A DNA stretch of 64,000 nucleotides from Candidatus Undinarchaeales archaeon (GCA_030753015.1 JASMDC010000018.1:8455-72454), one strand, 5' to 3'; positions 10,466-62,561 are shown, counted from the first letter of the stretch. Made by a program: numbers and translations. Notes: generated by a model from the letters alone, not told the origin.

Positions 10466-10578
10466 TGGGACGGGAACGACTCTCAACGGTTATAAAACCG
10501 GCGGTCGGTCGGGTGCCGCAGGATAACCTTTTTATTGCGGGGTAACCTTTTTATTATAACGCGTGAACGGTGGACACC

Positions 10579-28887: not shown

Positions 28888-29553
28888 CTAGGCGGTGCCG
28901 GTGATCAGCATGATGTTGAGAACGTCCGAGGCGTTCTCAGCGGCGTCGGTGAGCCCCGCAGTGGCGTCGGCGATGCCTGCCACCAGGAAGAGCAGGATAG
29001 GGTCATTGATCTCATACAGCTTCTCGTACAGCTCCCCCTTGAGTTGGTCGGCCTGAGCCTCCCGGTCGGCGATCTGCTTGAGGACACGTTTAGTGTCCTC
29101 GGGTCTCTCCTGGAGGGCGTCGTAGGCGAAGAGCAGGAGCTCGGTGGCGTCGATGCCGAGATCGGTCATGCGCTTGAGGTGCTTTGCGATGGACGGATCG
29201 CACTTCATATCCAGCATGTGCATCGAGATGCTCGCTGCGTCCTTGGACTCGTCCACGATGTCGTCCACCCGCTCCACGAGGTCGATGATGCGGCTGCGTG
29301 ACAGAGGGAGGAAGGCTCCCGAGTAGAGGAGTTCCTCGATGCTGTGGACGAAAGTGTCCGCGTCATTTTCCTGCTTTCGGATCTCCGCAAGCTTCGCCCG
29401 GGCCAGCTCCTTGTCGCACTCGCCAACGGCGTCGAAGAACTCGCCCAGTGCCACAACGCTCTTGTTGGCTTTCACCATGTGCTTTCGGATGAGCTCGAGC
29501 ACCTGGTTCTCCTTGTCCCTCCCGAAGAAGGGAATGCCGTCGAGGAATCCCAT
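28888..29553 (-). CDS. DUF47 (TIGR00153-like) phosphate transport regulator
   Basis: ENDAD...GAFLPLSR and EAQAD motifs; directly upstream of the PiT gene. Confidence 0.9.
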   Translation of the reverse strand: MGFLDGIPFFGRDKENQVLELIRKHMVKANKSVVALGEFFDAVGECDKELARAKLAEIRKQENDADTFVHSIEELLYSGAFLPLSRSRIIDLVERVDDIVDESKDAASISMHMLDMKCDPSIAKHLKRMTDLGIDATELLLFAYDALQERPEDTKRVLKQIADREAQADQLKGELYEKLYEINDPILLFLVAGIADATAGLTDAAENASDVLNIMLITGTA

Positions 29554-29622
29554 GATAATCACTCTTACTTAAGGACTAGGACATGCCACTTTTAAAACGC
29601 TTGTGCTCGCGTCCAGCCGGTC

Positions 29623-32600
29623 CTAACCGACAGTCACGGTGCACTCACAGGCGCATGAGCCGGGATCGGTGCGTATGCGGCACTTCTTCCGGTCGAGCCA
29701 GAGAGTGCAGGTCGGCAGGCAGTCGTTGCACGACACACGGAGCGTGCAGCCGGAGTAGTCGATACCGTGGTCGATGAACACGCTCTCGCCCTGCACGACC
29801 GTCGGCTCCCGCACCTCGAGCCGCGCGAGAGGGAAGAGGTCCGCGTTCACGATGCCTTGGGAAGTCGGTTCGACGGCCCACTCACGTCCGTGTACGTCCC
29901 TGGCCCTCACCACGATGGTGTAGGAGTTACCCGGTTCGGCCATGAAGGACCCAGACATAACGGTCGTGGATCCCTCGCCCCAGATGGCGACCTGTGTATC
30001 AGCGTTGCTCCCTTCGACCGCCAGCGACCAACCATCGATGACAGCAACGGACACCATTCCCTCGAAGGGCACGGTCGCGATGTCGGACAGGTCCACGGTG
30101 GCATGGACCCGCGTGGGCTCATAGAACACCGCAGAGGTGAGCCCCTCATCTGTCTCGAAACCCGCTTCGGAGATCCTGAGCTCGGGCCGCGTGATCTCGA
30201 GGTAGGCATTGGGGTAGTCCATGCGGAACTCGAGCGCGTCCTCAAGGCACCAGAAGGTCATGACCTCCCCGGAGCAGGAGTTCGAAGGCAGGCCTTGTTC
30301 AGGGAGGGTCTGGTCGAACACCGTCATGTTGTTCTCGTCCATGGCCTCCACCCTGAGCCGGAGCACGAAACCGACGTACTCTGAGGGGGTCTCCACCTCC
30401 CGTGTCTCGAGTCTGCTGCCCTCGAGCACGTCCATCACCATGATTGACGCCAGAGATCCATGGACCTCTTGTCCCTCTGCGTCCACCATGGAGACGGACA
30501 CGGTGAGGGGAAAGAGAGCGGACTTGACGGTGACGATCCCTTTGACGCGGGTACCGGCATGTGCCTTGGTCGCCCGCTCGCCGTCCACCGTGAACCAGGC
30601 GTCCTGGACTGCTACTGTGCCCATTGGCAGCACCTTCGAAATGGAGCCCACGGCCGTGGCGACAGTCCTCCCCTGCTCGTCGTACACCTCGAGCACCGGC
30701 TGCACCGTCTTACCTACAAGGTCCTCTTCCATTTCCTTGAGGTTCGAGAGCAGTGTTACGTCGGTGCCGGGGTCCACGGACGAGACGGGGATGGTGGCCA
30801 TGATGGCTGAGAACAGCTCCTCACAGGAGCACTCGCACACAGCGTCCTCGGGACAGAAGGGACATTCACAGGCATCGAAGAGCCTGAGCTTGACCTCGGA
30901 CCTACCGTAGAACGAGAGGAATCCGGCGTTGGCCACGTCCGCTCGGAACCGCACGCTCTCCCCACCATAGAGCGCTTGAACCTCGCTCTGGCCTCGGAGG
31001 GTCGCCAGGCTCACACTCAGCTCGGGAGTCAGCGCCTTGCACATGCGCGCGCACACGTCCCATATCCCCGTGTCCCGCTCGTCACGTGGACAGCTGAGGA
31101 TGCACTCGAATGTCGTATCCGGCCAGTCCCGTTCCCCCTCTCCTTCCCAGCAGTCGTCGACACAGACACGTGACTCCCTGGTCTCGGGGAACTGCGTGAC
31201 ACAGGTCCGTTCACACGCTACTTTGGCACCCATGCAACGGCGTGTGCATGCGTCCGTGCGTTCGCGGTTGCTGCCGAACAGGCTGTGACATGCTCGGCGG
31301 CACGAGGAGCTGCCCATGCACGTGGACGTGACGGGCCGTTCGTCGAATCCGTACCGGCAGCACAGCCCGATGGGGGAGCGCCCTGTCTGGCAGCGGTCGA
31401 AGAGGGGTCCGCCGCTCAGGGCGTGGGATGGTGACTCGCACAGCTCGGGATCGAACGGGCACTCGCCCTCCACGCCCTCGCCACAAAGGGCACGCGTGGT
31501 CGACCAGGGGACCGGTGTCTGTGGCCCGGGCTCGTACACGTCGGCGAACATACCCTCGCAGCAGGCCTGGATGCTCGCCCGATCGGTATCGTTGAGCAGG
31601 GGATCTGCGCACTGGTACGCCGTCGTCCGCCACTCAGTGCCCAGTCGGCACACGCACAGCTCGAGCTGGGCGTGGCAATGGGCCATTGACGTGCCATAAC
31701 ACTTCTTGCACACGTCCTCGCACAGCGAGACCTTGGGGATCTTGTGGACGAGGCAGCTCAAGGTATCTACGAATACGTCCTCCACATCGGTGTCCCTGAT
31801 GATCTCGATGGTGTCCATGTGCTCCTCGGACCACTCGTCCATGTTGATGTCCTTGATATTGGCGATGGCCGGCTCGTGGGGGGCACACCCGCCGCGGTAG
31901 CCTCCGCATCCGGGGACCGGTGGCTTGGGCTGGGGAAGCGGGGGCAGACTACCGGGCTTCATTCCCTCGGGCCGCTTTCCGCACTCCTTGACGTTGAAGT
32001 TACGACAGAACACGGCCCATTGGCGGTGCGGATCGGCGTTCGGCGGCTCCTCGCCCGTTTTGTACATCAGGTTCGGATTCGTGCCCGGTGGGAAGTGGAG
32101 GTCCTGGATCTCCACGTCAGAGCAGAACTTGCTGACCTCGGAAGGGAAGTTGTGGCGGAATGTGGTGAGGTCGGCAAGGAGCTTGTCGTTCTGGAGGAAG
32201 AGGAGCATGTCGGTGGTCTCCTCCTGGAACTCATCGGAGCTTCTGATGCGGTCCGGCTTACCGTCCGTCGCCTCGTACTTGTCGATCCTCAGTGCGATGG
32301 CGGCCAGTTCGTCCAGGTTCTCCTGGACATGTGTGTAGGTCGCGCCCTGCTCCACGTTGCTCTGGTACTTTGCCCTGACGGCCTCCAGCTGGCCGATCAT
32401 CTTGGGCAGCTCCTTGAGCATGTTCCCCAGGTAGTCGAGGATACGCTCCAGCTGGTCCTCCACCTCGCAGGGGGTTCGGTAGCTCTTCTCGTCCTCCTCT
32501 ACCTGTGACGCTGGCGGGCGGTACGCGGCGAAGTCGAAGGGCGTGTGAGCGCAGTGGTGCCCCTCGGTGGGGGGCGGGGGCCAGGCGTACTCCCCGGAAT

Positions 32601-34089
32601 CGTAGTCCTTGAGACGTGTTCCGATCACCTCGTCGAGCTCGCACACGTCGTGGAGATCGGCAAGCTCATGTGTGCACTGGCGTATCTTACGTGGTGAGGG
32701 GCGGCTGTTCTTGGCCTTCTTGGTCTCCAGTGAGCGCCAGGCCTCGGCGATGATGTGGTTGGGCCTGTAGCAGCCCGCGTTCATGTAACCGTAGGGATCG
32801 AACTGCTCGTTGATGCACGGCCGCACACAGCAGGCGATCTGTCCCTTGGGATTGACGTTGTCAAGACCGGTGTCGCATCCCTTGAAACCGCCGTGCTCGT
32901 CCGGCTGACCGATGGCCTTGTTGTCCCCGCAGAAGTAATCGTTGTGCCAGCACTCGTGCACCTCGCCCACCGGCTTTCGGGGCACCCCGTGCGTGTCGCA
33001 GTTGTCCCCGTAGTTGCAGGGATAGGGATCGCACAGAGGTTGACACATGGACATCCCGTTGTTGCCCTCGACGCACTTTTCCTTGTCCATGCAGGCCACC
33101 CTGGCCGTGCGGAAGCACGAACTGGGCGAGGGGAGGTCGCCGATCTCCACCTCGAGCACGCAGCCACCGTACTTGTCGTTGAACTCTTCGATGGAGCCCT
33201 CGCACAGGTTGCACTGCCTCTTCGCAGCGTTGTAGATGTTGCGCAGGTCCTTCTCCACCGACGTGTAGAACTTCTTGAAATTTTCATAATAGGCGATCGT
33301 GGTCTCGACGAAGTCGGCCATGCTCTCGTAGTTGGCGGCGATCTTGCTCACGTCCTCGGGACAGTCCAACAGGCTCACGTTGAGCTCGTCAGGCTCGTAT
33401 CCCGTGTACTCCGGCTTCTCAAGCCCCGCGATCATGGTGTTGCATATGTACGGTTCGCCCTCAGTGAGGGGGTTCTCCTCGCAAGGGCGGAGGTTGAGGT
33501 CGGGACGCGGTCCGCCGTTGGCCTCACCATATCCTTTGTCAACGCACACCGCGCCAACGTACCCGTCGCCCCCGAAGGCGCACTGCCAGGTGCAGATCTT
33601 CATCTTGAAGGACTGGCGACACTGCTCGTCAGCGCCGCCACCGTCCCCCCCGCCGATGCTCAGGGGACCACAGTGGCCCACGCTGTGGCCCGAGATGGCG
33701 ATCGATTCACAGCCGGCTTCGTCATCTGAGAACTCGTCCTCGCATTCGCAGTCCTCGCCCGGCAGGCAGTCCTCGCCCGACTCCCAGCAGGCGTTGTCGC
33801 CGTCGTACAGCCCCACCGAGCCACGGCACTGGAAGAACTGGCCAGGGGAGCTCTCCTCCAACTCACAATCATCGGACGCGCCCTCGGTCTCCATGATGCA
33901 CCAGGTCTCCATGCCCGGCTCCAGCTTCGGGGAGCATGCAGAGGGTGCCAGGGCTAGGTCCATGGACAGGACGGTGAGGAGGGCGAGCGTGGCGACGAGC
34001 AGTATAGCATGTGCCAGGGGGGAGCAAGGATCCCCTCCTTTCCCCTTCTTCCAGGTCAGCGCCACCGGGATGTCCGCCCTGTCATGCAT
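29623..34089 (-). CDS. giant Cys-rich secreted protein, paralog B (~1488 aa)
   Basis: Long ORF with hydrophobic signal segment, colinear with 34109-38284; start chosen at ATG after GGAAGGT. Confidence 0.85.
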   Translation of the reverse strand: MHDRADIPVALTWKKGKGGDPCSPLAHAILLVATLALLTVLSMDLALAPSACSPKLEPGMETWCIMETEGASDDCELEESSPGQFFQCRGSVGLYDGDNACWESGEDCLPGEDCECEDEFSDDEAGCESIAISGHSVGHCGPLSIGGGDGGGADEQCRQSFKMKICTWQCAFGGDGYVGAVCVDKGYGEANGGPRPDLNLRPCEENPLTEGEPYICNTMIAGLEKPEYTGYEPDELNVSLLDCPEDVSKIAANYESMADFVETTIAYYENFKKFYTSVEKDLRNIYNAAKRQCNLCEGSIEEFNDKYGGCVLEVEIGDLPSPSSCFRTARVACMDKEKCVEGNNGMSMCQPLCDPYPCNYGDNCDTHGVPRKPVGEVHECWHNDYFCGDNKAIGQPDEHGGFKGCDTGLDNVNPKGQIACCVRPCINEQFDPYGYMNAGCYRPNHIIAEAWRSLETKKAKNSRPSPRKIRQCTHELADLHDVCELDEVIGTRLKDYDSGEYAWPPPPTEGHHCAHTPFDFAAYRPPASQVEEDEKSYRTPCEVEDQLERILDYLGNMLKELPKMIGQLEAVRAKYQSNVEQGATYTHVQENLDELAAIALRIDKYEATDGKPDRIRSSDEFQEETTDMLLFLQNDKLLADLTTFRHNFPSEVSKFCSDVEIQDLHFPPGTNPNLMYKTGEEPPNADPHRQWAVFCRNFNVKECGKRPEGMKPGSLPPLPQPKPPVPGCGGYRGGCAPHEPAIANIKDINMDEWSEEHMDTIEIIRDTDVEDVFVDTLSCLVHKIPKVSLCEDVCKKCYGTSMAHCHAQLELCVCRLGTEWRTTAYQCADPLLNDTDRASIQACCEGMFADVYEPGPQTPVPWSTTRALCGEGVEGECPFDPELCESPSHALSGGPLFDRCQTGRSPIGLCCRYGFDERPVTSTCMGSSSCRRACHSLFGSNRERTDACTRRCMGAKVACERTCVTQFPETRESRVCVDDCWEGEGERDWPDTTFECILSCPRDERDTGIWDVCARMCKALTPELSVSLATLRGQSEVQALYGGESVRFRADVANAGFLSFYGRSEVKLRLFDACECPFCPEDAVCECSCEELFSAIMATIPVSSVDPGTDVTLLSNLKEMEEDLVGKTVQPVLEVYDEQGRTVATAVGSISKVLPMGTVAVQDAWFTVDGERATKAHAGTRVKGIVTVKSALFPLTVSVSMVDAEGQEVHGSLASIMVMDVLEGSRLETREVETPSEYVGFVLRLRVEAMDENNMTVFDQTLPEQGLPSNSCSGEVMTFWCLEDALEFRMDYPNAYLEITRPELRISEAGFETDEGLTSAVFYEPTRVHATVDLSDIATVPFEGMVSVAVIDGWSLAVEGSNADTQVAIWGEGSTTVMSGSFMAEPGNSYTIVVRARDVHGREWAVEPTSQGIVNADLFPLARLEVREPTVVQGESVFIDHGIDYSGCTLRVSCNDCLPTCTLWLDRKKCRIRTDPGSCACECTVTVG

Positions 34090-34108
34090 TACCTTCCAGT
34101 CCACCGGG

Positions 34109-37100
34109 CTATGTGGCCGAGGAGATGCACTCGCAGGCACAGGTGCCCGGATCAGATTTGATGGTGCATGACTTCCGGTGGAGCCAGAGGGTGCACGTAG
34201 GCAGGCATTCCTCGCACGCCACCTGGATGTTGCAGTCCGAGTAGCTGATGGACGAGTAGATGTACGTCGCCTCGCCCTGTACCAGGGTCTTCTCCTTCGC
34301 CTCCAGACGGGCCAGTGGGAAGAGCTCGGGATTCACCAGGCCCGAGGCCGTGGGGACGATGGCCCACTCCCTGCCCTGGTGGTCCGTGCCCCGGACCATG
34401 ATCACGTAGGTGTTCCCGGGCTGAGCGGTGAAGTACTCCGACCACGCTGTAGTATCCTGCTTGCCAGCGAGGGTGATGTCCACCTGTCGAGAGCTTCCCT
34501 CGACCTCCACGGACCAGGAGTCCAGAGCGGAGATGGTCACCATCCCTTCGAAAGGTATGGTGGCGATGTCCGTCAGCTTGATGGAGGCCCGTACCTCTGT
34601 CGCCTCGTACATGACCGCCGATGACAGCCCGTCCTTGGTCTCGAAAACCGCCTCATTGAGCTTCAGCTCCGGCCGGCGGATCTCAAGGTAGGCGTCCGGG
34701 TAGTCCATGCGGAAGTCCACGGTCTCCTTCTGGCACCATGCGGTCATCACGTCGCCAGCACAGGCGTCCGAGGCGAGCCCCTGTTCAGTGAGGGTCTCGG
34801 CGATGACGGTGGTGTTGTCCTCGTCCATGGCCTCGACATGGAGGCGCAGCACGAATCCGACGTACTGGGCGGGAGTTTCAACCTCCAGCGTCTCCAGCTG
34901 GCTGCCGTCGAGCACGTCCTCGATCTCGATAGCGCTACGTGAGCCCTCGATCTCGTTCCCGTCCGCGTCCACCATGGACACGTACACGGTGATGGGGAAG
35001 AGGACTGATTTCACCTTTATAGCGCCCTTGATCTTCGAACCGGCATAGGCCTTCGTGTCACGTTCGCCGTCCACGACGAACCAGGCGTCCTGGATGGCCA
35101 CCTTCCCCATTTCGAGGACCTTCGAGATAGGTCCCTGAGCGGAGCGTATCAACCGGTTGTCCTCGTCGTACAGCTCCATCACGGGCTGGACGGTCTTGCC
35201 CGCGAGCCCTTCGTCCACGCCCTTGGGATCTGAGAGAAGGACCGAGGACTCCCCTGGCTCCACCAGGGGGACCGGGATCGTGGCCAGGATGGCGCTGAAC
35301 TGGTCATCGCACGCACATTCGCACACAACCCCCTCGGGGCAGGGCGGGCAGTCACACGAGTCGAAGAGCCTGAGCTTCACCTCGGCCCGTCCACGGAACG
35401 GCAGGAAGCCCTTGTTGTCCACTGCGGCCTTGAACCGGATGTCCTCACCTGCATAGAAGGCCTGGACGTCGCTCTCACCGCGCAGTGCCGACAGCCGGAC
35501 GTCGAGCTCGGGTGCGAGCGCCTTGCAGATACGCTGACACACCTCTTGGACCTTTTCGTCCTTCTCGTCGGGCCTGCAATTACGGATGCAATCGAACGTG
35601 TACTCGGGCATCTCCTCCTGTTCCTGCTTCCAGCACTCGTAGATGCATCGCCGCTCCTCACGGATGTCCAGGGACTGTGTCAAACACTGCTGCTCGCACG
35701 AGACCTCGGCCGTCATGCACCGGGCGGTGCACGCGTCCACGCGTTGTGGGTTCCCCCTGAACTTCTCCTGGCAGCCCTTCCGGCATGACGCGCTCTCGGC
35801 GCAGGAATAGGTGATGGGCTTCTCCTCGAACCCGAACTTGCAGCACAGTCCCGTCTCGGAGGTGCTGGTCTGACAATAGTCGTAGAGCGGGCCCGCGTTG
35901 AGGACGTGGTCGGGCGTCGGGCACAGCTCCTTGTCGAAGAGACAGTTCTCGTCCATCCCCACAACGCACTGACGATTGGCCGTACCGCCACCGGGCTTGT
36001 ACACGACGTGAGGTATCCCCGTTCCGGAAGTGGGTGCGCTCACGTCAGCGTACATGGCCTCGCAGCAGGCCTGGAACTGGGCCTTGTCGGTGTCGTTGTG
36101 GATGGGCTCTTGGCATTCGTACGCGGTGGTCTTCCACTCGGTCCCCAGCCGGCATACGCACAGACCCAGCTGGGCATGACAGTGGGCAATGGACGTGCCA
36201 TGGCACGACTTGCAGATGTCCTCGCACATCGATACCGTCGGGATCTTGTGGCGGAAGCAATCTCCCGAGTCGACGAACATATCCCGGAGATCTAGCTCAC
36301 GGAACTCCTGGAGAGCCTCCATGTGCACCTCGCCCCACTCGTCCATGTTCTGGTCCTTCCAATGGAACATCTGGGGGACGTGAGTGCATCCTCCCCGGTA
36401 TCCACCGCACCCGAGGATGGGGGCTCCTTCGGCGTTCCCGCTCATCATCATGGTGGTCATGGCGAAGCTCTGCTCGTTACCGGACTGGCCGCCTCCGCCT
36501 GGGATCACGTTCCACCGGCTGCAGAAAGCACCCCACTTGTCGCAACCGTCGCCCTTGTGCTTCATTTCCTTGGGGGTTCCCCCTGGGAAAGCGAGCTCGC
36601 AACCGGCAGCGTCGAGCTTGCAGGCCACAGCGTTCCAGGAGTGCTTCTTAGTGAGGTCGGTGAAGAACTCGCTCGTCTGGAAGAACTTGACGAGCTTTGT
36701 GAGCAGCTTCTGGAACTTGTCGGTGTCCAGTTCCTCCTCGTCGCCGCTCTTCTCGAGCTTGTCGATGTTCCCCATGATGGCGACCAGTTCGTCCATGTTC
36801 TTCTTGATCTCGACGTAGGAGGCGCCCTGGTTGATGGAGGTCTGGAACTTCGTCTTCACCTTCTTGAGCTCGGCGATGGCCTTGGGCATCTGGGTGAGGA
36901 GGTTCTTGAGGTACTTGAGCGTCTTCTTCATGTCCTTCTCCACATTACAGGCGATCTCGTCCTTGTCCATCTCGCAGATGTCCCTAAGGTCGGCGAGCTT
37001 CTTCTCGCACTCCCGCACGCCCACGGGGGCCACCACGGCACGCTTGGACTTCTCGGTCACCAGCGTCCGCCATGCCTCAGCGATTATGTGGGACGCACTG

Positions 37101-38284
37101 TCCTGGAAGCATGCTTCGTCCTTGAAGGAGTAGATGTCCGTGCACGTTGGTGGCTGAGGCTCCTCATCAGGAGTGGGGGTCTGCTGCTGCGCCTCATTCC
37201 ACTCGCCCCAGGCATTGAGGAAGGCACCGAACTTGGCCTGACAGATGACACTGGCCTCCATGCAGCACCCGCCCATGTCCACGGTGGCGGGATCCGGCTT
37301 AGGATTGCACCCTGCTGCCCCGAAATCGTCGCCCGGTGAGCCGATCGTATCGTCGGTACCGCAGAAGTTCTCATTGGACCAGCACTCACCGTCGGGTCCG
37401 GGCACACCCTTTTCGCACTCCTTGCCATAGTTGCACGGGATGGCCTCACACATGGGGCACATCTTCACCATCCCTGCCTGGCCGCCGCTCCCCTCGTTGC
37501 AAACGGAACCCCGCTCGCAGAAGGGCTTGGCCACGTTCCAGCAGATTGTGGGTGCGGGCAGGTCCTCCATCTCGTTCTCGGGCATGCCACAGATGGCGTA
37601 CTTCTCGTTGAACGACTCGAGGCTGCTCTCGCATGTGGAGCACTGCTTCTTGACTGCAGTGTATACGATCTGGAGGTCGTTGTTCAGCTCCTTGAAGAAC
37701 TTGAGGAAATTCTCGTAGTAGAGGATGGTGGTTTCGACGTACTCGGCCATGTTCTCGTAGTTCGCCGCGTCCACACCGCCCTCCTCGGGGCATTCGAGGA
37801 GCGAGACGTTGAGCTCATCCACCTCTGCCTCGGACTCGAACTTCGGCTTCTTGAGGCCCGGGATCATCCCCTCGTTGATCATTGGCGATCCTTCAACGGG
37901 TGGATTTTCCTCGCAGGGCGGGAGATTGAGCTCCTCGCGGGTGGGGCTATTGCTCATCCAGCCCTTGGCGACGCATACCTGGCCCACGTAGGCCTTCTCG
38001 CCGAGATTGAATAGATAGGAGCATGCCTTCCAGCTATAGTCATCATCGTCCTCCTTGTAGTCGCCCTTCATGATGCTGAGCATCCCGCACTCTCCCGGCA
38101 TCAGGGTGGCTGCATCCTCGATGCTGCTACACTTCTCGAACTCGTCGTCGGGTTCGTACTCGTGGATGCACCACACCAGTTCCCCTTCCTCCGAGCTCAC
38201 GGGGACGGCGCTCATTAGCACTACGGCCATAACGGCCAAGATAACGTATCTGGATTTCACGATGATCACCTTCGATCGGCCCAT
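34109..38284 (-). CDS. giant Cys-rich secreted protein, paralog A (1391 aa)
   Basis: Signal peptide, Cys-rich modules, helical segments, beta-rich C-terminal domains. Confidence 0.87.
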   Translation of the reverse strand: MGRSKVIIVKSRYVILAVMAVVLMSAVPVSSEEGELVWCIHEYEPDDEFEKCSSIEDAATLMPGECGMLSIMKGDYKEDDDDYSWKACSYLFNLGEKAYVGQVCVAKGWMSNSPTREELNLPPCEENPPVEGSPMINEGMIPGLKKPKFESEAEVDELNVSLLECPEEGGVDAANYENMAEYVETTILYYENFLKFFKELNNDLQIVYTAVKKQCSTCESSLESFNEKYAICGMPENEMEDLPAPTICWNVAKPFCERGSVCNEGSGGQAGMVKMCPMCEAIPCNYGKECEKGVPGPDGECWSNENFCGTDDTIGSPGDDFGAAGCNPKPDPATVDMGGCCMEASVICQAKFGAFLNAWGEWNEAQQQTPTPDEEPQPPTCTDIYSFKDEACFQDSASHIIAEAWRTLVTEKSKRAVVAPVGVRECEKKLADLRDICEMDKDEIACNVEKDMKKTLKYLKNLLTQMPKAIAELKKVKTKFQTSINQGASYVEIKKNMDELVAIMGNIDKLEKSGDEEELDTDKFQKLLTKLVKFFQTSEFFTDLTKKHSWNAVACKLDAAGCELAFPGGTPKEMKHKGDGCDKWGAFCSRWNVIPGGGGQSGNEQSFAMTTMMMSGNAEGAPILGCGGYRGGCTHVPQMFHWKDQNMDEWGEVHMEALQEFRELDLRDMFVDSGDCFRHKIPTVSMCEDICKSCHGTSIAHCHAQLGLCVCRLGTEWKTTAYECQEPIHNDTDKAQFQACCEAMYADVSAPTSGTGIPHVVYKPGGGTANRQCVVGMDENCLFDKELCPTPDHVLNAGPLYDYCQTSTSETGLCCKFGFEEKPITYSCAESASCRKGCQEKFRGNPQRVDACTARCMTAEVSCEQQCLTQSLDIREERRCIYECWKQEQEEMPEYTFDCIRNCRPDEKDEKVQEVCQRICKALAPELDVRLSALRGESDVQAFYAGEDIRFKAAVDNKGFLPFRGRAEVKLRLFDSCDCPPCPEGVVCECACDDQFSAILATIPVPLVEPGESSVLLSDPKGVDEGLAGKTVQPVMELYDEDNRLIRSAQGPISKVLEMGKVAIQDAWFVVDGERDTKAYAGSKIKGAIKVKSVLFPITVYVSMVDADGNEIEGSRSAIEIEDVLDGSQLETLEVETPAQYVGFVLRLHVEAMDEDNTTVIAETLTEQGLASDACAGDVMTAWCQKETVDFRMDYPDAYLEIRRPELKLNEAVFETKDGLSSAVMYEATEVRASIKLTDIATIPFEGMVTISALDSWSVEVEGSSRQVDITLAGKQDTTAWSEYFTAQPGNTYVIMVRGTDHQGREWAIVPTASGLVNPELFPLARLEAKEKTLVQGEATYIYSSISYSDCNIQVACEECLPTCTLWLHRKSCTIKSDPGTCACECISSAT

Positions 38285-38594
38285 CTATGACAGAGTGGGT
38301 CCTGTAACGATACCTGCTGTCCCACGTATAAATAGGATTCTCGGAACAGCTATGGGACGCTAAATTCATGAGCACGTCCTCGTGCTAAGTGAACCGACGC
38401 TAATAGATCCATTTGGACTGGAATGGCGTGTTTCTCCAGGGATATGAACTGAACGGGGGGCGTTACGCCCTTATTAAGGACACGTATTAGTGACTCTATC
38501 CACGGCCCTGTACGTCGACAATGTAACTAGTATACTACGTCATTGACGCGAAATCTTCTCGGAAAACAGGTTTATTTCAGAATAAATCGTATTA

Positions 38595-38679
38595 ATCCTT
38601 AATAAATCCTTGGGGCGGGGGCGTAAATGTAAGAAAAAACAAGAAAATGGCTTAATATTACGAAGCATTTATTAAGGAT
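38595..38679. promoter_or_regulatory. 13-bp inverted repeat in AT-rich divergent intergenic region
   Basis: atccttaataaat (38595-38607) / atttattaaggat (38667-38679); third ttattaagga at 38471-38480. Confidence 0.5.
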
Positions 38680-38735
38680 AACCTGTCCTAGGGACAAGTC
38701 GGGCGGCCAGCCGCTCACATACCCAGGTGAGAAAC

Positions 38736-39578
38736 ATGCGCCGAAGGATTATCTCCATTTCCTTGAGGGAGGACCTCATAACCCGTGTAGACAACCTTGT
38801 CGACGGTACCGTTATCCGGAACCGGTCGCACGCTCTCGAGAGCATCCTTGTCAACTACTTCCGTGAGGAGAAGATCAAGGTGCTCATCCTCGCAGGGAGC
38901 CAGGGAAAGGACCTCCTGCCCCTGACAAAGGATACTCCCAAGTGCATGCTGGATGTCGGAGGGAAGCCCATTTTGGAGCATGTTGTACGCAACCTCCGAG
39001 TGCTCGGTTTCACCCAGATGATCATATCCGTCTCATATAAATCCGACAAGGTCATGGACTACTTCGGTGACGGGAGCCAGTTCGGTGTGGAGATCACGTA
39101 CATCCAGGACCCGGAACCTCTCGGAACGGCCGGTGCCCTCATCAGGGCCGACAAGTTCATCGACGGGCGGTTCATCCTCATCTACGGGGATAACTTCTTC
39201 AAGTTCGATCTCAGCGACATGGTGGAGTTCCACGAGAAGGCCAGCGCCCTGGGAACCGTTGGCTTGACAACCGTTCCGGACCCAGCGGCCTACGGTGTCG
39301 TCGAGCTGAAGGGTAGCAAGGTCGTGGACTACACAGAGAAGCCCACCGACTACCGCTCCTTCATCATCAACGGTGGTATCTACATCTTCGAGCGTGAGAT
39401 CTTTTCGAGCCTCGATGCCTCTCAGCGCTCCCTGGAGCGGGACGTGCTACCTCAACTGGCCAAGGAGGGGAAGCTCGCCGGGTACAACCTCGCCGGGCAA
39501 TGGATCGGTATCGACACCAAGGAAGACCTCGAGAGGGCGCGCAAGCTCTTCTCTGAGAAGAAGGTCGAGACCATCTAG
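38736..39578 (+). CDS. ribbon-helix-helix domain fused to sugar-phosphate nucleotidyltransferase domain
   Basis: RIISISLREDL...NRSHALE (NikR/CopG-like), then PKCMLDVGGKPILEH, EPLGTAGA, YGD and INGGIY. Confidence 0.85.
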   Translation: MRRRIISISLREDLITRVDNLVDGTVIRNRSHALESILVNYFREEKIKVLILAGSQGKDLLPLTKDTPKCMLDVGGKPILEHVVRNLRVLGFTQMIISVSYKSDKVMDYFGDGSQFGVEITYIQDPEPLGTAGALIRADKFIDGRFILIYGDNFFKFDLSDMVEFHEKASALGTVGLTTVPDPAAYGVVELKGSKVVDYTEKPTDYRSFIINGGIYIFEREIFSSLDASQRSLERDVLPQLAKEGKLAGYNLAGQWIGIDTKEDLERARKLFSEKKVETI

Positions 39579-39991: not shown

Positions 39992-40450
39992 GTGGAGTGC
40001 GAGATTTGCGGACGTCAGATGCACCGAGGCGAGCGTATTCGCCTTGAGGGTGCTACCGTCACCGTGTGCAGGGACTGCGCCTCCATGGGAACCCGCATGG
40101 GCCCTGCCTACGAGCCGCGCCCGGTCGAGCGTTCCGTGAAGCGAACTCCCGACCGGCGCAAGCCCGAGGAGGAGATAGTCCCAGAATGTGCCTCACGGGT
40201 GCACCTAGCCCGCGAACGGCTAGGCATCACACAGAAAGAGCTCGCTGAGCGTCTCAACGAGAAGGAGTCGGTGATAACCCGTATCGAGACCGGACGTATG
40301 GTGCCGCCGATCTCCCTGGCCCATCGCCTCGAACGGAAGCTGGAGATAACCCTGGTGGCCGTGCTCGAAGAGGAGGATGTCGGTCCCCTAAAGAGCCATG
40401 ACGCCCCGCTCACCCTCGGGGACGTTGTCAAGGTCCGGAAGCGCGGCTGA
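39992..40450 (+). CDS. mbf1: archaeal multiprotein bridging factor aMBF1
   Basis: CEICG...CRDC Zn ribbon, Cro-type HTH, C-terminal TLGDVV. Confidence 0.93.
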   Translation: MECEICGRQMHRGERIRLEGATVTVCRDCASMGTRMGPAYEPRPVERSVKRTPDRRKPEEEIVPECASRVHLARERLGITQKELAERLNEKESVITRIETGRMVPPISLAHRLERKLEITLVAVLEEEDVGPLKSHDAPLTLGDVVKVRKRG

Positions 40451-40454
40451 ACCT

Positions 40455-43400
40455 ATGGCGAAAGCTTGGAGCAACAGCCGTGGGAAGGTCATCCTGCTCG
40501 GCCTTGGAATGACCATCTTAATCCTGACGAGCTTCTATCTCAACCACTACCTTCCGTTCAAGCAACAGATGCTCCATCTGGCATGGAAGGGCACGATCCT
40601 GGACGGTAGTGTCGAGTCCGTGAGTGTGCTTGGAGCGGAAGTACCTGTCGGAGGCGGTACATTCATGCGTCAGGTCACCTTGGCCGTAAATGGCATGGCC
40701 CTCTGGACGCTGGTGTCGTGGCTTGCGTTCTTCCACTTCGATCCAGGGCTCATGCTCCTTCTCTGGGGCACTTGGCAGTTCTCCTTCCCGGTCGGACTGG
40801 GACTGCTCACACTGTGGGCGCTGGTGAGCACGCGTCTTGAGCGCTTCGAGCAGCGGGACGGACTCCTACATCATCTTCACATCCTATCCTTCAGGTACGT
40901 GCCCCTCTTCCTAGTGCTCCCATGGGCGCTGGCCTGTTTGATGATACGGAAGCGAACCCCGGACCGCGCACCGTTCGAGGACCCCGTGGTCAGGGAGGTC
41001 ATCGATCTATCCCGGTACCACGTTCCCGTCATGGTGTTCTACTCGCTGGCCATCCTCATGCTCGTGTTCGGCATGATGGGTGGAGTACGGTCCGTGGTGG
41101 CGGCCTCCGGCGACCTCCACGGCATGCTTGACCTGCCCGAAGCGCGAAGGTACTACCTCACCGGGTTCGCTCTCGAGGCACGAGAGAACGGATTCGAGCT
41201 CCTCCCTGATCCCGGTGCGCTCCGCGAGATAGCCGTGCTCCATCTGGCTCCCATCCTCACAAAGGAGCACCTTCCGGCCGAGTACGTATCCCTCATGGGT
41301 CTCGTCGGCTTGGAGGCGGGGCAGTTCGACCATGCTCGATACACTGAACTGGTAACTGACAACGCCCTGTTCTTCACCTTCGTGGGCCCGCTCCTCACTC
41401 CGCTCGTGGCCCAGGTGGTCTCTACTTTGCTCTACTTCGCGTTCATCTGGCTGGTGCTGCCCCGGCGGACCGATGCGTCCGTGTTCTCCTCGACAGCACG
41501 CGCGCTGTTCACCATCCTCATCGCCTGGCTGGCCCTCTCTACCGTGAACTTCTGCCTGCGAACACTGGTGGGCGACATCGGAGTGGCCACTGCACCGACG
41601 AACCTTCTTACCGTCATCACCCTCATGGTCCGCTGGGTGGTCGTGCTCGGTGGGATGCTGGTGGCCTATGCCGTGCTCAGGCTCGACATCGCCAAGACCC
41701 TCGTTAACGGACTGGCCCCGGTCTCTGGGAGCAAGGACGGCGCCCGGGCCGCGATGCTGGTAGCGGTGGCGGTCGCGCTCATAGCAGGGCTGATCGTGGT
41801 GTTCACCATGCTCGCACCGGTGCTCGATCGTCTCGTGCTCTCGCCCATGAACAATCAGGTCCAGAGCCATCCGGAGCTCTATTATGACACCCTCATCCGA
41901 GCGGGGCTGGGCATCAACCGGTACCTTGCAGACATCCCTGCCGATAGCGTCCAAGTACGCGACCTCGGGGGCGAGGCACTTCGACAGAACCTCCGGTTCC
42001 AGGACAACTTCATTAATACCAACGCAGACATGCTCTCCACAGTCCGCCTGTGGGACCGTGAGCGTGCCCGTGTGCGAACCGATCGCAACATGGGCGAGGT
42101 ACCGTACCTCGACATCGGGAACGAGGATTTCCTGGTGCGTGAGGAGAATGGTCGGATGGCCCCCTTCTGGGCCGTTGAGCTCCCTCTTCGGCGGGACAAG
42201 GTGACGGACGGTGACTTCTACAACAACCACCAGTTCTACACACACTCCGATCAGGGCTTCATGACGCTGGACGCCAACACGGGCCACGGTATAGAGAACG
42301 CGTACCCCGAGGACCAGATGTACTACGGAGTCCACGAGGATTTCGCTCTCTTGGAGAGCTACCTGACCGAGGAGAATGTGACAGAGGTCGGAGACGTCAC
42401 GTACGAGGGTAAAGGCCTCGAGGTTACCGTTCCTGACGTGTTCTTCTACGACGCCCACTACATCGGATTATTACCGAACGCCCTACGTCGGTGGCGAGTA
42501 CCGTCGGACGAGACCTTCTACTGGCGATGGGCCGAAGCAATCGACCGGGGGGACATTTCCGGATTCAAGCTCCTGCTCATGCGCCGGTTGGACCTGCGGC
42601 TGCGCAACCTTCTACCCGTGCTGGCCACGACCGAACCCTTCGACATCAAGGGCAACGATCCCTATCCCATTACATATCGCGGGGGCACCTGGTTCCTCAT
42701 GCACGGATTCATCGCACTCGATCCGTCCCTCATCCCCCTCACCCGTATGGAGGTCACCGGTGGTGTGGGCTCCCGCAATCCTGTCGAAGCGTACGCCCGG
42801 TACACTGTTATCGCACTGGGAAACATCTACACGGGGGAGATCGAGCTCTACGCGCCCTTCGATGACCGGCTCTCCCAGCTCCTACGCACCGTGTATCCTG
42901 ACCTCGGCCGGGAGCTCCCTGACGAGGTCCGGCGCCAGCTCCGATATCCCAAGCAGTACCTCACCTGGCGCGCCCACAAGCACTTCGACAACCATCCCAT
43001 GCCCGAGGACTACTACAAGGGGCTGGACTTCTTCAAGTCCGATCCTTCGCAGGAGACGATTTACTACACTCCGTTCCAGATGGACGATGGTGCCACGGAG
43101 TTCGTGGGCATCCTTCCGGCGTTGCTCGACAAGGGAGCGGCCCAGACGCAGACCGAGACCGGGCTCGTTGGATTGTACGTGGTGCGCAACTCCTTCCTCC
43201 GGGACGACCTGGAGCATTTCGGAGATATCGTGCTCTACCGCTTCCCCAAGTCCGGTGGGGACGAAGGCGGCTGGCTCTTCTACTCGTACCAGGCCATCGA
43301 GCGCAACTACAAGGGCGATGCCCGTTACCAGGAATGGGCACGTCTGAAGGAGAGCGAGACGCTCAAGCCAGGCAACATGCTCCTCTATCGCATCGGCCGA

Positions 43401-43823
43401 CATTGGATCTATATCCGGCCTATCTATCTGGAGACCGGAAAGGGCATCACACGTCTCGAGAAGGTCGTTGCCATGCTCGGCTCCTACCAGGTGAACGCCA
43501 CACGGGACGAGTATCGGGTCGGTTTCGGCGATGATCTCCATGGCGCCCTGCGCGACCTCATGACGACGACAGTTGTCCCCTCGACAACGGAACCGGAACC
43601 GAACGTCACGATACCCCCGCCATCACACCCCTCGACAACTGATGACGATGTGGCCGAGGCCTTGACCGCACTTAAGTCCCTGGTGGACGAGAAGGTAGAG
43701 TGCCTGCGCGCCAACGACCTGGTGTGCGCCATGGCGGTCGAGGCACGGATGACGGAGGCCGAGGCCCGGTTGGCGGAACTGTTCGCACGCAATCGCACGG
43801 GAGGTGGTACGGATGCCGCGTAA
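40455..43823 (+). CDS. large membrane protein with UPF0182-like C-terminal domain
   Basis: Many TMs followed by FYTH, YYG, DPYP, QLRYP and GNMLLY...IYIRPIYL segments. Confidence 0.7.
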   Translation: MAKAWSNSRGKVILLGLGMTILILTSFYLNHYLPFKQQMLHLAWKGTILDGSVESVSVLGAEVPVGGGTFMRQVTLAVNGMALWTLVSWLAFFHFDPGLMLLLWGTWQFSFPVGLGLLTLWALVSTRLERFEQRDGLLHHLHILSFRYVPLFLVLPWALACLMIRKRTPDRAPFEDPVVREVIDLSRYHVPVMVFYSLAILMLVFGMMGGVRSVVAASGDLHGMLDLPEARRYYLTGFALEARENGFELLPDPGALREIAVLHLAPILTKEHLPAEYVSLMGLVGLEAGQFDHARYTELVTDNALFFTFVGPLLTPLVAQVVSTLLYFAFIWLVLPRRTDASVFSSTARALFTILIAWLALSTVNFCLRTLVGDIGVATAPTNLLTVITLMVRWVVVLGGMLVAYAVLRLDIAKTLVNGLAPVSGSKDGARAAMLVAVAVALIAGLIVVFTMLAPVLDRLVLSPMNNQVQSHPELYYDTLIRAGLGINRYLADIPADSVQVRDLGGEALRQNLRFQDNFINTNADMLSTVRLWDRERARVRTDRNMGEVPYLDIGNEDFLVREENGRMAPFWAVELPLRRDKVTDGDFYNNHQFYTHSDQGFMTLDANTGHGIENAYPEDQMYYGVHEDFALLESYLTEENVTEVGDVTYEGKGLEVTVPDVFFYDAHYIGLLPNALRRWRVPSDETFYWRWAEAIDRGDISGFKLLLMRRLDLRLRNLLPVLATTEPFDIKGNDPYPITYRGGTWFLMHGFIALDPSLIPLTRMEVTGGVGSRNPVEAYARYTVIALGNIYTGEIELYAPFDDRLSQLLRTVYPDLGRELPDEVRRQLRYPKQYLTWRAHKHFDNHPMPEDYYKGLDFFKSDPSQETIYYTPFQMDDGATEFVGILPALLDKGAAQTQTETGLVGLYVVRNSFLRDDLEHFGDIVLYRFPKSGGDEGGWLFYSYQAIERNYKGDARYQEWARLKESETLKPGNMLLYRIGRHWIYIRPIYLETGKGITRLEKVVAMLGSYQVNATRDEYRVGFGDDLHGALRDLMTTTVVPSTTEPEPNVTIPPPSHPSTTDDDVAEALTALKSLVDEKVECLRANDLVCAMAVEARMTEAEARLAELFARNRTGGGTDAA

Positions 43824-45233: not shown

Positions 45234-46814
45234 ATGGGCACTCGCGTTCCCCCACAAGGGGGCGTCACCAGTTCGGGACGGACCGTGACCATGGTCGTCC
45301 TCATCGCTCTCCTCCTGAGCGTCTCGTGTGCCCTGGCGGCGAACGACACCGTCCATATCCACGTCTTCTACGGTGAGGGCTGCCCCCATTGTCGGGATGA
45401 AAAGCCATTCCTGGACTACCTTGAGGAGACCTATCCTTCGCTGGAGGTCCACCTGTACGAGACTTGGAGCGATCCGAAGAACGCGGAACTGTACCAGAAG
45501 GTCGCGGCCAGCTATAACGGAGAGGCCCGGGGAGTGCCTGGCACCTTCATCGGAGAGCACTTCATGATCGGGTACGGCTCTGCAACCACTTCGGGAAAGC
45601 AGCTGGAGGGCTACGTCAAGGAATGTCTTGAGAAGGGATGCGTAGACCCATTCGTGAAGGCGGGGATCACCACCGCAACGACGCCCGGTGGCTACCCGGA
45701 CCTGAGCGGTGTGGACGTCTGTCTGGTCGTCTTCCTGAACATGACCTGCGCTCCCTGTGAACGCCTCCTACCCTTCCTGGAGGAACTGGAAACGCGGTAC
45801 AACATCAACATCACGACCTACGAGGTCAACAATCCGCTCGGGAACGCCATCTACAAGGACTATCGCCGGCGCCACGGTATCAAGGAAGTGGGTTTCCCCC
45901 TAGCGTTCATCTCAGGTTATTACCTCATGGGCGAGGGCCTCATCCGCGACCACCTCCCCTCACTGCTGGAGGGCTGCTTAACCGAGTCCTGTATGTGCTC
46001 CGCAGGGAATATCGTACCGATCACTCCCGGCATACCCGATCCTATTGATGTTGATCCGCCAGAAAAAATTCATGTATGCCTCCCCTTCTTGGGTTGCATA
46101 AATACGCAGAACGCCTTCCTCCCGGTCCTCACCGTTGCGATCGCCCTTGTGGACGGCGTGAACCCGTGCACCATGTGGGTGCTCTCCTTCCTCCTGTCCA
46201 TGCTCTTCTACGCCCGATCGCGCAGGCGCATCATCATGGTGGGCCTGGTCTATCTCGTGACCGTGTTCACGGTGTACTTCGTGTTCATGGCCGCTTGGCT
46301 GAACACCTTCCTCTATATCGGCTACATCGACTGGATACGCAATTCCATCGGCCTCATCGCCGTTGTAGCGGGTCTTATCAACATCAAGGACTTCTTCTGG
46401 TTCGGTAAGGGCATCTCGCTGGTCATCCCACAGCGGTTCAAGCCCTTTCTTATGCGTCAGATGCGTAACCTTACCAAGGCCGAAGGCTGGCCCCTCCTCA
46501 GCGGGACTGTGTTCATGGCCGCGTCCGCCAGCCTCATCGAGCTCCCATGCACCGCCGGGTTCCCGGTCATCTACACGCAGATCCTGACCCAGCAGGGCTT
46601 CTCCGGCGTGAGCTACTACCTCTACCTTGTGCTCTACAACCTCGTCTACATAATCCCCGACGCCTGCGTGCTGGCGGTGTTCCTAGTCTTCATGGAACGC
46701 AACCGTAAGATCACAGAGCGGGAGGGGCGATGGATGAAGCTCGCAGGCGGTTCGATCATGCTCGTCCTCGGTCTCATCATGCTCTTCAAGCCCGATATGC
46801 TGATGTTAGGGTAG
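45234..46814 (+). CDS. tandem thioredoxin/glutaredoxin domains fused to CcdA/DsbD-like membrane domain (start may be 45291)
   Basis: CPHC and CAPC motifs; DGVNPC and ELPCTAG membrane cysteines. Confidence 0.85.
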   Translation: MGTRVPPQGGVTSSGRTVTMVVLIALLLSVSCALAANDTVHIHVFYGEGCPHCRDEKPFLDYLEETYPSLEVHLYETWSDPKNAELYQKVAASYNGEARGVPGTFIGEHFMIGYGSATTSGKQLEGYVKECLEKGCVDPFVKAGITTATTPGGYPDLSGVDVCLVVFLNMTCAPCERLLPFLEELETRYNINITTYEVNNPLGNAIYKDYRRRHGIKEVGFPLAFISGYYLMGEGLIRDHLPSLLEGCLTESCMCSAGNIVPITPGIPDPIDVDPPEKIHVCLPFLGCINTQNAFLPVLTVAIALVDGVNPCTMWVLSFLLSMLFYARSRRRIIMVGLVYLVTVFTVYFVFMAAWLNTFLYIGYIDWIRNSIGLIAVVAGLINIKDFFWFGKGISLVIPQRFKPFLMRQMRNLTKAEGWPLLSGTVFMAASASLIELPCTAGFPVIYTQILTQQGFSGVSYYLYLVLYNLVYIIPDACVLAVFLVFMERNRKITEREGRWMKLAGGSIMLVLGLIMLFKPDMLMLG

Positions 46815-51326: not shown

Positions 51327-51433
51327 TGGGCCCGCGGGGATTTGAACCCCGGACCTCCCGGTTATCAGCCTCGCCTCGCCCGGGGGAACACCCCGTACGA
51401 TCGGACGCTCTAACCTAGCTGAGCCACGGGCCC
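51327..51433 (-). tRNA. tRNA-Ile(GAT) with 32-nt intron (51370-51401) at position 30/31; CCA not encoded
   Basis: GGGCCCG acceptor stem, CT-GAT-AA loop, GGTTCAAATCC T-arm, complete bulge-helix-bulge; TATA about 25 nt upstream. Confidence 0.93.
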
Positions 51434-59811: not shown

Positions 59812-60114
59812 TCACCCGTCAACCTTGAACACGAAGATAGTGCGGTTCGGGCGGGAGAGCTCGACCTTCTTTGCAAGAGCCGTCCGCTCCCCGTCCACGC
59901 GCAGGGGCGATGGGACCAGAAGGTACTGGGAACCGCGGTCCACGAGCTTGGACGCGGCATGGTAGCCCTGGTCGCCGACGAGGATGATCTTGTTACCGAG
60001 CTGGAACTGTTCGCTGAGCCGGTCGCTCTCGATCTCCACGTGCACTCGCAGCTTGCGGTCCTCCTTCAGATGCTCGACACCGACGAGCTTACCCTCGATC
60101 ATGGTCGGATACAA
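59812..60114 (-). CDS. AbrB/SpoVT-like domain protein
   Basis: GSQYLLVPSPLR motif; AGGTGA RBS before TTG. Confidence 0.65.
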   Translation of the reverse strand: MYPTMIEGKLVGVEHLKEDRKLRVHVEIESDRLSEQFQLGNKIILVGDQGYHAASKLVDRGSQYLLVPSPLRVDGERTALAKKVELSRPNRTIFVFKVDG

Positions 60115-60181
60115 GTTTCATCACCTTTATTTAATTTTACCTTAAGATGTATCAGAAATCCTGGCTTCGGGATACGAAGGG

Positions 60182-60496
60182 ATGCGAATGGCCATAATCG
60201 AGAAAGTCGAGGCGGCAGAGGAGGACGAGGACGTCAGGCTCCATGTACGCATGAGCTACGAGGAATTCATCGCCCTTGAAGGGCACATGAAGGGCATCCA
60301 TCTATTCTCTGAGGCGGCGAGCAAACACACGACTACCATCTCGCGCAGGGGGCCGGGGAGCACGAGGTACATCCTCATCCCCAAGGCTCTGCGCAAGGGC
60401 ATCCCTCAATTCATCAAGGATGTACCAGTAACCCGTCTTGCCACGGCCTCTAAGGAATTCATCATCTTCACCATCTCGAAGCGGATACTCGGGTGA
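60182..60496 (+). CDS. AbrB/SpoVT-like domain protein, paralog of the divergent neighbour
   Basis: GSTRYILIPKALRK motif. Confidence 0.7.
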   Translation: MRMAIIEKVEAAEEDEDVRLHVRMSYEEFIALEGHMKGIHLFSEAASKHTTTISRRGPGSTRYILIPKALRKGIPQFIKDVPVTRLATASKEFIIFTISKRILG

Positions 60497-60500
60497 GCAC

Positions 60501-61169: not shown

Positions 61170-61448
61170 GTCAGCGAGAGCGGTCGCTGGCGAGGCCCGA
61201 CGGGGTATTGTTCAAGGCACCTTCGGATAGATGCTCCTTCGTTTCTCTTGCGGATCCCCGGTCCGTTGTGAGAAACTACCCTTTTACGCTCCTCTACTGA
61301 ATGCGGATAGTGGGCAACGTTGATGTGGGGATGACCGTTCTGGTATGCGGGTGAATGTACAAATATGGGGATATTAAATCACAATATTGGATACAAAAGT
61401 CCTCAAAATAGTAAAATATATGAGTGGACTATATGACATAGACCCGAC

Positions 61449-62552: not shown

Positions 62553-62561
62553 CGCAGGATC

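Follow-up and report, generated by a model that had tools for sequence, protein, structure and literature searches.

What would an archaeon do with two adjacent genes for giant, cysteine-rich secreted proteins that resemble each other and match no recognised family? The question is raised by a 64,000-nucleotide (nt) stretch of DNA from Candidatus Undinarchaeales archaeon (GCA_030753015.1 JASMDC010000018.1:8455-72454), the whole of which is referred to here as the window. Its minus strand carries two co-oriented long open reading frames (ORFs), A at 34109..38284 and B at 29623..34140, the latter as listed from an upstream GTG, with 1505 amino acids (aa). We reasoned that A and B are, with a probability of roughly 55%, surface scaffold proteins, stapled by disulfides, of an apparatus directed at bacteria, and that they are enzyme-free members of a giant-protein family, the function of which is pointed to by its context of murein hydrolases and prepilin-like partners.

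The gene pair and its family

Gene A (P0001; minus strand, 34109..38284, stop codon included) starts with ATG and encodes a secreted Cys-rich scaffold protein of 1391 aa, and gene B (minus strand, 29623..34089, stop codon included) encodes its paralog of 1488 aa. The start of B is likely the ATG at 34089 rather than the upstream GTG at 34140, since a Shine-Dalgarno-like run, GGAAGGT, lies just upstream of this ATG, the ATG begins 19 nt beyond the TAG stop of A (34109-34111), and the ortholog P0006 begins at the same Met. The spacer (minus strand, 34090..34108), which holds the GGAAGGT run, is thus 19 nt long, and the two proteins are 47% identical across 1425 alignment columns (BLASTP, E = 0), as expected from a preliminary description of this DNA, made from the sequence alone, in which a tandem pair of giant paralogs about 19 nt apart had been proposed. 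A scan of positions 29300-38800 for terminator-like sites on the minus strand returned none, and, with no such site in between, A and B are likely co-transcribed. A TATA-like box, TATTTATA (minus strand, 38327..38334), read from the sequence 43-50 nt upstream of the A ATG, is a candidate archaeal promoter.

Both genes are real and under strong purifying selection. Between two species of the same genus, at a synonymous divergence (dS) of ~0.52, the ratio of nonsynonymous to synonymous divergence (dN/dS) was 0.057 for A and 0.088 for B, and these low values, together with the existence of orthologs, ruled out that the frames are spurious ORFs of a GC-rich genome. When the ratio was determined in 60-codon windows, all values were at or below 0.24 except for the first window of B (0.70), which corresponds to the signal peptide, and the last 12 codons of A (0.61). 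The windowed values ruled out diversifying selection on the loops, and the variable tips of the preliminary description did not hold up, since those loops in which A and B diverge from each other change little when orthologs are compared (dN/dS mostly <=0.24) and are not fast-evolving tips. Each protein has a mass of ~150 kDa and contains ~16% acidic residues, with an isoelectric point (pI) of 4.6-4.7. Cysteine makes up 5.7% of each stop-to-stop frame (79 Cys in the called protein A and 89 in B), and three N-X-S/T sequons lie at matching positions in A and B.

Database searches indicated that A and B are members of a new, lineage-restricted scaffold family without recognised domain or described relatives. 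In Pfam, B had no match and A only sub-threshold noise, and NCBIfam gave nothing meaningful for either. Murein-hydrolase domains were absent from both proteins at E <= 1 (Pfam) or E <= 0.1 (NCBIfam), and neither database placed a known S-layer domain in them. A family profile, built on the conserved core (A residues 398-1391) of 17 paralogs and scored against 1.84 billion representative proteins, retrieved 37 representatives at E <= 0.001, of which 27 had E <= 1e-30; three of the weakest matches, P0038, P0040 and P0042, are repeat proteins with few Cys that probably have no relation to the family. When A residues 100-420 were used in a word-based search, only A itself and P0004 and P0005, orthologs from a third lineage, were recovered. 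The family is carried by 2 of the 17 genomes of the phylum in our collection, both of the same genus, and by 2 of 41 sampled archaeal genomes; some profile matches, present in ENA or Logan assemblies only, combine a low-GC-style composition with the same C-terminal motif, so that metagenomes hold more distant carriers. When genome contigs were scanned with a four-row alignment, a single locus was found, in a second genome of the genus (G001), and, with the A/B alignment, a scan over JGI metagenome contigs returned 591 pattern stretches and 0 relatives. In the literature, supplements excepted, nothing was found on the A/B family; S2 Table of PMC12352652, a list of archaeal hydrolase matches, may include the lineage.

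In the genome G001, A and B keep both their order and their gene neighbourhood, with identities of 94.3% for A and 91.5% for B, the highest among the 17 paralogs (46-90% for the others). Syntenic neighbour genes are 43-94% identical between the two species, and A and B are equally conserved. G001 holds 19 full family members, and close counterparts (64-94% identity over the aligned parts) were identified for 16 of the 17 paralogs, the best match of the remaining one, L033, reaching only 46%. A third lineage has an ortholog of either gene, P0004 (63% identity with A) and P0005 (61% with B), and each was found on two contigs, the longest being 94,593 bases for both. A quick maximum-likelihood tree built on the final 650 residues groups the A clade and the B clade as sisters, with support by the Shimodaira-Hasegawa-like approximate likelihood ratio test (SH-aLRT) of 100% for A plus B and of 91 and 90 for the individual clades, so that the duplication would be older than the lineage split. 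As read from these sequences, the A/B pair is retained in three lineages, with the same gene order in two species.

Murein hydrolases and prepilin-like partners of the family

The source genome (3.85 Mb, 117 contigs, 98.9% complete, 5% estimated contamination) encodes 17 full paralogs, A and B included, along with one fragment. They range from 1064 to 2845 aa by called starts (1067-2850 aa from stop to stop) and account for 2.6% of the genome, and all 17 possess a signal peptide, 4.0-7.2% Cys and a common C-terminal domain. Nine are encoded singly and six in two trios, leaving A/B as the sole pair; A and B are also nearly the smallest of the family (the smallest but one), and both are free of enzyme domains.

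Pfam revealed murein-hydrolase domains in six of the 17 paralogs and other modules in three, the remaining eight, to which A and B belong, being without any. The hydrolase domains are M23 in L023, M23 plus SLT in L025, NlpC/P60 in L026 and L027, and M23 plus NlpC/P60 in both L033 and L037, and, as to the other modules, L036 has three C-type lectin domains, L024 has FG-GAP repeats and L031 has a Kazal domain. Hydrolase-bearing paralogs are 1900-2170 aa long, and in each the enzyme domain is inserted in loops of a scaffold core of ~1000-1400 residues. Projected on A, the insert sites are located at ~265, 488-504, 756-787 and 1125, and others fall within the N-terminal extension; they coincide with the loops formerly described as divergent, and these loops are short in A and B.

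In a whole-genome scan, every murein-hydrolase match fell inside a family member (4/4 M23, 4/4 NlpC/P60 and 1/1 SLT), and among 14 control genomes the M23, NlpC/P60 and SLT Pfam families occurred in bacteria only. Catalytic residues were checked against motif definitions, namely HxxxD and HxH for M23, the Cys of DCSG and a His for NlpC/P60, and the ES motif for SLT, and by these definitions three of the four M23 domains, three of the four NlpC/P60 domains and the SLT domain look intact. Since this archaeon has no murein of its own, the hydrolase domains must act on bacterial walls.

A screen of the genes neighbouring family members identified two recurrent ones, designated X and Y. X is a secreted, beta-strand-rich protein of ~930 aa with a conserved C-terminal NPGxW...C motif. 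Y has ~600 aa, and 14 of its 19 stand-alone ORFs contain an N-terminal [KR]GQ followed by ~20 hydrophobic residues, with variants in two and truncated or unclear forms in three; this combination is the archaeal class III (prepilin-like) signal. Genome-wide, we counted 21 X-like and 19 stand-alone Y-like ORFs, mostly adjoining one another, and a Y gene lies within 12 kb of 8 of the 17 paralogs. The X-Y cassette is present at loci L040-L046 (for example, C21:7133-11802) and at ~20 places over the genome, nearly all within 12 kb of a giant ORF of this family or of another. A Y-like globular domain (Y residues ~42-468, 33-36% identity) is also fused in the N-terminal extension of L032 in both species, at C39:26931-28181 inside L032 of the source genome (G000) and at C1:23086-24306 inside its counterpart in G001.

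The genome further contains four A24 prepilin-peptidase and five T2SSE ATPase matches above the cut-off. An X-Y cassette (X at 59983-62850, Y at 62753-64687) lies ~3 kb downstream of one T2SSE/PilB-type ATPase match (C26:56894-57376, plus strand, in a 779-aa frame). Neither X nor Y belongs to a Pfam or NCBIfam family. The ESM Atlas clusters nearest to Y are hypothetical DPANN archaeal proteins, with scores of 0.90-0.91 at the edge of significance, and a single-protein query with Y recovered it from 2 of the 41 sampled genomes, of this genus only.

Scaffold architecture and readings of the pair

The sole strongly hydrophobic 19-residue window in A and in B is the N-terminal signal, and there is no C-terminal anchor. 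In A, the Sec-type signal peptide comprises residues 1-31 (minus strand, 38192..38284), with a predicted cleavage site, and residues 6-24 form the only window with a mean hydropathy above 2; the next-highest windows of the two proteins reach 1.4-1.6 and are located in sandwich strands. Beyond the signal peptide, no hydrophobic or amphipathic membrane segment was detected in A or B. C-terminal sorting signals of the PGF-CTERM/archaeosortase or LPXTG type are absent, both proteins ending in a hydrophilic Cys-rich domain, and the class III (prepilin) signal is likewise missing, both carrying ordinary Sec-type signals. Inspection by eye found no lipobox in A, a non-canonical one in B and an inconsistent picture over the family.

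The scaffold is ordered as signal peptide, N-terminal segment, head, small Cys-rich domain, three twin-CX3C hairpins, three sandwiches and Cys-knot tail, and the coordinates that follow are those of A on the minus strand. The acidic, Cys-containing N-terminal segment (37883..38191, residues 32-134) is modelled with predicted local distance difference test (pLDDT) values below 50 and has a dN/dS of 0.04-0.07 between species; it is the region where paralogs have long N-terminal extensions, and inserts of two paralogs map there, an M23 domain in the first and lectin domains in the second. The helical-bundle head (36218..37882, residues 135-689) is predicted to contain helices of up to 54 residues, Cys-rich loops and beta-hairpins, with no specific known fold. 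It is followed by a small Cys-rich alpha/beta domain that includes the AHCHAQL... block (35810..36217, residues 690-825), delimited on the basis of the models and insertion mapping; within it, loop 751-785, a low-confidence stretch in the model of A, is the NlpC/P60 site in three paralogs.

Next in order is the CxxxC helical run (35519..35809, residues 826-922), in which six CxxxC motifs at 834-920 lie on consecutive helices (residues 137-233 of the model, block-mean pLDDT mostly 85-95). Twin-CX3C helical hairpins are a motif known from the small Tim proteins. In our models the CxxxC pairs sit on antiparallel helices as twin-CX3C-like hairpins, which we regard as a structural motif and not as homology, and their cysteines would be disulfide bonded. 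Three immunoglobulin (Ig)/carbohydrate-binding-module-like beta-sandwich domains (34298..35509, residues 926-1329) come after it: D1 (926-1058), which contains a CxCxxCxxxxxCxCxC cluster, D2 (1059-1204), which resembles Wzt-type glycan-binding domains, and D3 (1205-1329). Structure search resolved the three at residues 237-370, 370-516 and 516-640 of the model, with a Cys-rich beta tail after them.

The protein ends in a Cys-knot beta domain (34112..34297, residues 1330-1391; CLPTCxLxxD...CxCxC), the most invariant part of the family, with Cys columns that do not vary in 38 aligned rows. It occupies the C-terminus of 17/17 paralogs and is present on three other giant ORFs. These three (2102-2416 aa, 9.3-9.8% Cys; C36:22454-35266, plus strand, and C51:41755-49005, minus strand) share only the last ~190 residues with the family. 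The final sandwich and the Cys-knot tail, ~190 residues in all, look like a portable C-terminal module, and on C36 two of the three giant ORFs with it are preceded by an X-Y pair.

Modelling gave a mean pLDDT of 88.5 for the last 702 residues of A and of 71.6 for its N-terminal part. A Foldseek search with the helical head gave no solved-structure match, with best E values of 2.3 in PDB and 2.5 among viral models (BFVD), and residues 135-760 of A had no usable match in ESM Atlas. A profile search against PDB sequences yielded nothing below E 0.19, a Sap fragment reaching only E 0.39. The generic Foldseek matches include Sap, antigen I/II, PrgB, alpha-2-macroglobulin/C3/C5 and mastigoneme proteins.

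Much of this architecture had been anticipated in the preliminary description. Its N-terminal signal, missing C-terminal anchor and Cys richness were confirmed by hydropathy and Cys counts, and its conserved blocks (LNLxPCEENP, DELNVSLLxCPE, ANYExMA, HIIAEAWR, GCGGYRGGC, KDxNMDEW, AHCHAQLxLCVCRLGTEW and CLPTCTLWL...CACEC) are all seen in the A/B alignment. The run of CxxxC helices and about three beta-sandwich domains correspond to the six CxxxC motifs in model helices and to the three sandwiches resolved by structure search, and the claim of an unrecognised family was borne out by Pfam, NCBIfam, Foldseek and the profile searches.

We propose that A and B act as surface scaffolds in the following manner. 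The proteins would exit the cell via Sec and then fold outside with many disulfides. Lacking an anchor of their own, they may be held at the surface through the common C-terminal domain, possibly on the pilin-like structure of Y and X. The family overall would bind and breach bacterial walls, be it for antagonism, predation or murein feeding, and A and B, its most conserved and enzyme-free members, would form a structural or glycan-binding core, perhaps joined in a heteromer.

Several points weigh against this proposal. A and B are devoid of any hydrolase or recognised binding domain, so that their link to murein comes through family membership alone. No X or Y gene lies on the A/B contig here or within ~300 kb of the pair in G001. 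The paralogs with hydrolase domains come from contigs other than that of A and B, in a genome assembled from metagenomic data with an estimated 5% contamination; they were assigned to the organism by scaffold homology, by the 16/17 counterparts in the second assembly and, for two of them, by physical linkage to Y genes with archaeal look-alikes. Retention at the surface, disulfide bonds and docking via the C-terminal domain are predictions. Expression has a weak hint behind it, in which DNA carry-over is possible: contigs of 151-331 nt from three RNA-library runs match A and B with 100% identity (two on B and five on A in X18, two and four in X19, and five on A in X20), none of them bridges the spacer, and these contigs are too sparse and of too low depth to rank expression. 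Finally, the high conservation of A and B equally fits a housekeeping envelope role.

Among the alternatives, an obligate heteromeric extracellular complex, in which A and B are non-redundant subunits after an old tandem duplication, is possible, with the odds somewhat against it. The pair stands in the same order in two species, and the third lineage has one ortholog of each gene on contigs of equal lengths; the quick tree joins the A clade with the B clade at 100% SH-aLRT, which places the duplication before the split; the 19-nt spacer with its Shine-Dalgarno-like run suggests joint expression; and purifying selection on both genes is strong. However, retention of both copies indicates non-redundancy rather than binding, and the conserved order refers to two species. 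Moreover, with 9/17 paralogs encoded singly and 6/17 in trios, the scaffold needs no paralogous partner, and heteromerism is not a property of the family; homologs encoded singly were what the preliminary description itself had named as an argument against its heteromeric apparatus. A complex prediction with the C-terminal halves of A and B (471 + 471 residues, each with its own alignment) returned no verdict (score 0.00, the mark being 0.32) and is evidence neither way.

A role of A and B as S-layer or envelope lattice proteins, with the hydrolase paralogs as accessory proteins that share the anchoring module, appeared unlikely to us. It would account for the two being the most conserved paralogs, on par with housekeeping neighbours, and for their location apart from the X-Y cassettes, and it is consistent with the acidic pI of 4.6-4.7, the conserved sequons and Ig-like arrays such as those of solved S-layer proteins (Sap is among the Foldseek matches). 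Yet A and B contain no known S-layer domain and no membrane anchor, no obvious anchoring partner adjoins them, and the RNA-library contigs are sparse and of low depth. Still less probable is that the proteins are released as soluble exoproteins, for example, as binders of seawater polymers or particles, since the invariant C-terminal domain common to the 17 paralogs and the three giants suggests a common docking or sorting partner, and half of the family is encoded beside prepilin-like surface proteins.

A fusion protein or a two-component pore former had also been raised in the preliminary description. That A and B together would form pores in a target membrane, or fuse it, by inserting their helical heads is very improbable. 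The head has long helices and beta-hairpins and the family appears aimed at other cells, but the proteins have no hydrophobic or amphipathic membrane segment and no fold match in PDB or BFVD, and the hydrophobic beta-tongue or membrane-inserting helices that are a feature of ClyA, Hbl and Nhe are absent from both. Of that earlier interpretation, the secreted, anchor-less and Cys-rich nature of the proteins and their lack of a known family stood, the variable tips fell, and neither the pore or fusion role nor heteromerism as a trait of the family was supported.

Genomic setting, comparison with known systems and biological meaning

The pair is flanked downstream by PhoU, PiT and sodium/phosphate (Na/Pi) transporter genes and upstream by a nucleotidyl transferase gene. 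A functional link to PhoU/PiT/Na/Pi or to the transferase was considered and ruled out, these being unrelated housekeeping genes with their own TATA-like box. At 45234-46814 (plus strand), 7 kb from A, a 526-aa protein is encoded in which a signal or membrane segment is combined with two thioredoxin-like domains (motifs CPHC, CAPC) and with a multi-pass domain whose PC motifs are typical of CcdA/DsbD; judged from these motifs, it is a candidate extracytoplasmic disulfide handler.

The window is archaeal, as indicated by an intron-bearing tRNA, GatE and HMG-CoA reductase. The tRNA gene (51327-51433, minus strand, 107 nt) was recognised by an Rfam match of 49 bits and missed by ARAGORN, and it probably bears an intron. 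Elsewhere in the window, an ORF at 40398-43823 (plus strand, 1141 aa) has a partial UPF0182 match (E 2e-11) and is 89% identical in the sister species, and four ORFs have no Pfam match at E <= 1e-5: 51487-53817 (minus strand, 776 aa), 54736-56361 (minus strand, 541 aa), 3733-5148 (minus strand, 471 aa) and 10570-12033 (plus strand, 487 aa).

The lineage of this organism has large genomes for a group that is otherwise known for reduced ones. The same-genus relative has 3.6 Mb and the 15 other genomes of the class and phylum in the collection have 0.6-1.2 Mb; the genome of the organism is three to six times the size of those of its known relatives. Stop-to-stop ORFs of at least 1000 aa number 109 and make up 14.5% of the genome; 51 have at least 1500 aa, and 33 of these contain at least 4% Cys. 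Examples are an ORF of 8360 aa (C40) and one of 4159 aa with 15.3% Cys (C51), some of these ORFs being perhaps spurious GC-rich frames. Sequences near-identical to gene A were found in marine or seawater DNA runs of nine studies, several of which may be the source of this assembly, and in small shares in the three RNA-library runs, which come from two studies, one of them a tenth study.

Among known systems, the closest comparison is with the M23 zoocin-A homologs of Halobacteriales, described as modular archaeal peptidoglycan hydrolases that kill bacteria (PLoS Biol 2025, PMC12352652). As far as the main account of that work goes, the two have in common a murein-less archaeon, secreted M23-type domains and domain shuffling (PMC12352652), and a bacterial target follows in our case from the archaeal producer being without murein. 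They differ in that the Halobacteriales proteins join M23 to peptidoglycan-binding domains, whereas here the hydrolases sit in loops of a giant scaffold without known relatives (PMC12352652); NlpC/P60 has 0 occurrences in the text of that paper (PMC12352652, supplements apart), and A and B, unlike the Halobacteriales enzymes, carry no hydrolase whatever.

The giant proteins of predatory Omnitrophota, to judge from the portion of the preprint that we consulted, reach up to 85,804 aa, have many transmembrane regions and mostly contain SecA-like domains (bioRxiv 10.1101/2023.11.21.568195). In contrast, the proteins studied here are archaeal, have 1064-2845 aa and no transmembrane segment beyond the signal, and are built on a different, Cys-rich scaffold. 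With Ig-array and macroglobulin (MG)-domain proteins, such as antigen I/II, PrgB, alpha-2-macroglobulin/C3/C5 and mastigoneme proteins, A and B share a string of Ig-like sandwiches as an extracellular stalk. However, the likeness extends to the generic fold only (template modelling score ~0.15, 7-13% identity), A and B are without thioester, isopeptide, LPXTG or Pfam match, and nothing in those proteins corresponds to their helical head, CX3C hairpins or Cys-knot tail.

More speculatively, and with less weight than we give to the heteromer, the family could be the working end of an undescribed archaeal anti-bacterial apparatus, in which Cys-knot-tagged scaffolds would be docked on prepilin-like X-Y structures (~20 cassettes) and would display hydrolases, lectins or integrin-like modules, with A/B as a conserved heteromeric core; the organism, a marine relative with a large genome of the tiny, symbiotic members of Undinarchaeota, would then make its living from bacteria, by lysing them on contact or by feeding on them.

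Archaeal antagonism against bacteria has been shown only recently, and with small enzymes. In this organism, which is widespread in seawater data, all murein-cutting domains of the genome are found inside one family of giant, otherwise unknown scaffolds. Within that family A and B are the cleanest entry point, being of the second-smallest size rank, enzyme-free and most conserved and having a head without known fold. If the proposed role of the family is true, these proteins would bear on the role of giant Cys-rich proteins in DPANN-type archaea and would make archaeon-bacterium contact, lysis or the scavenging of murein in the ocean accessible to concrete molecular tests.

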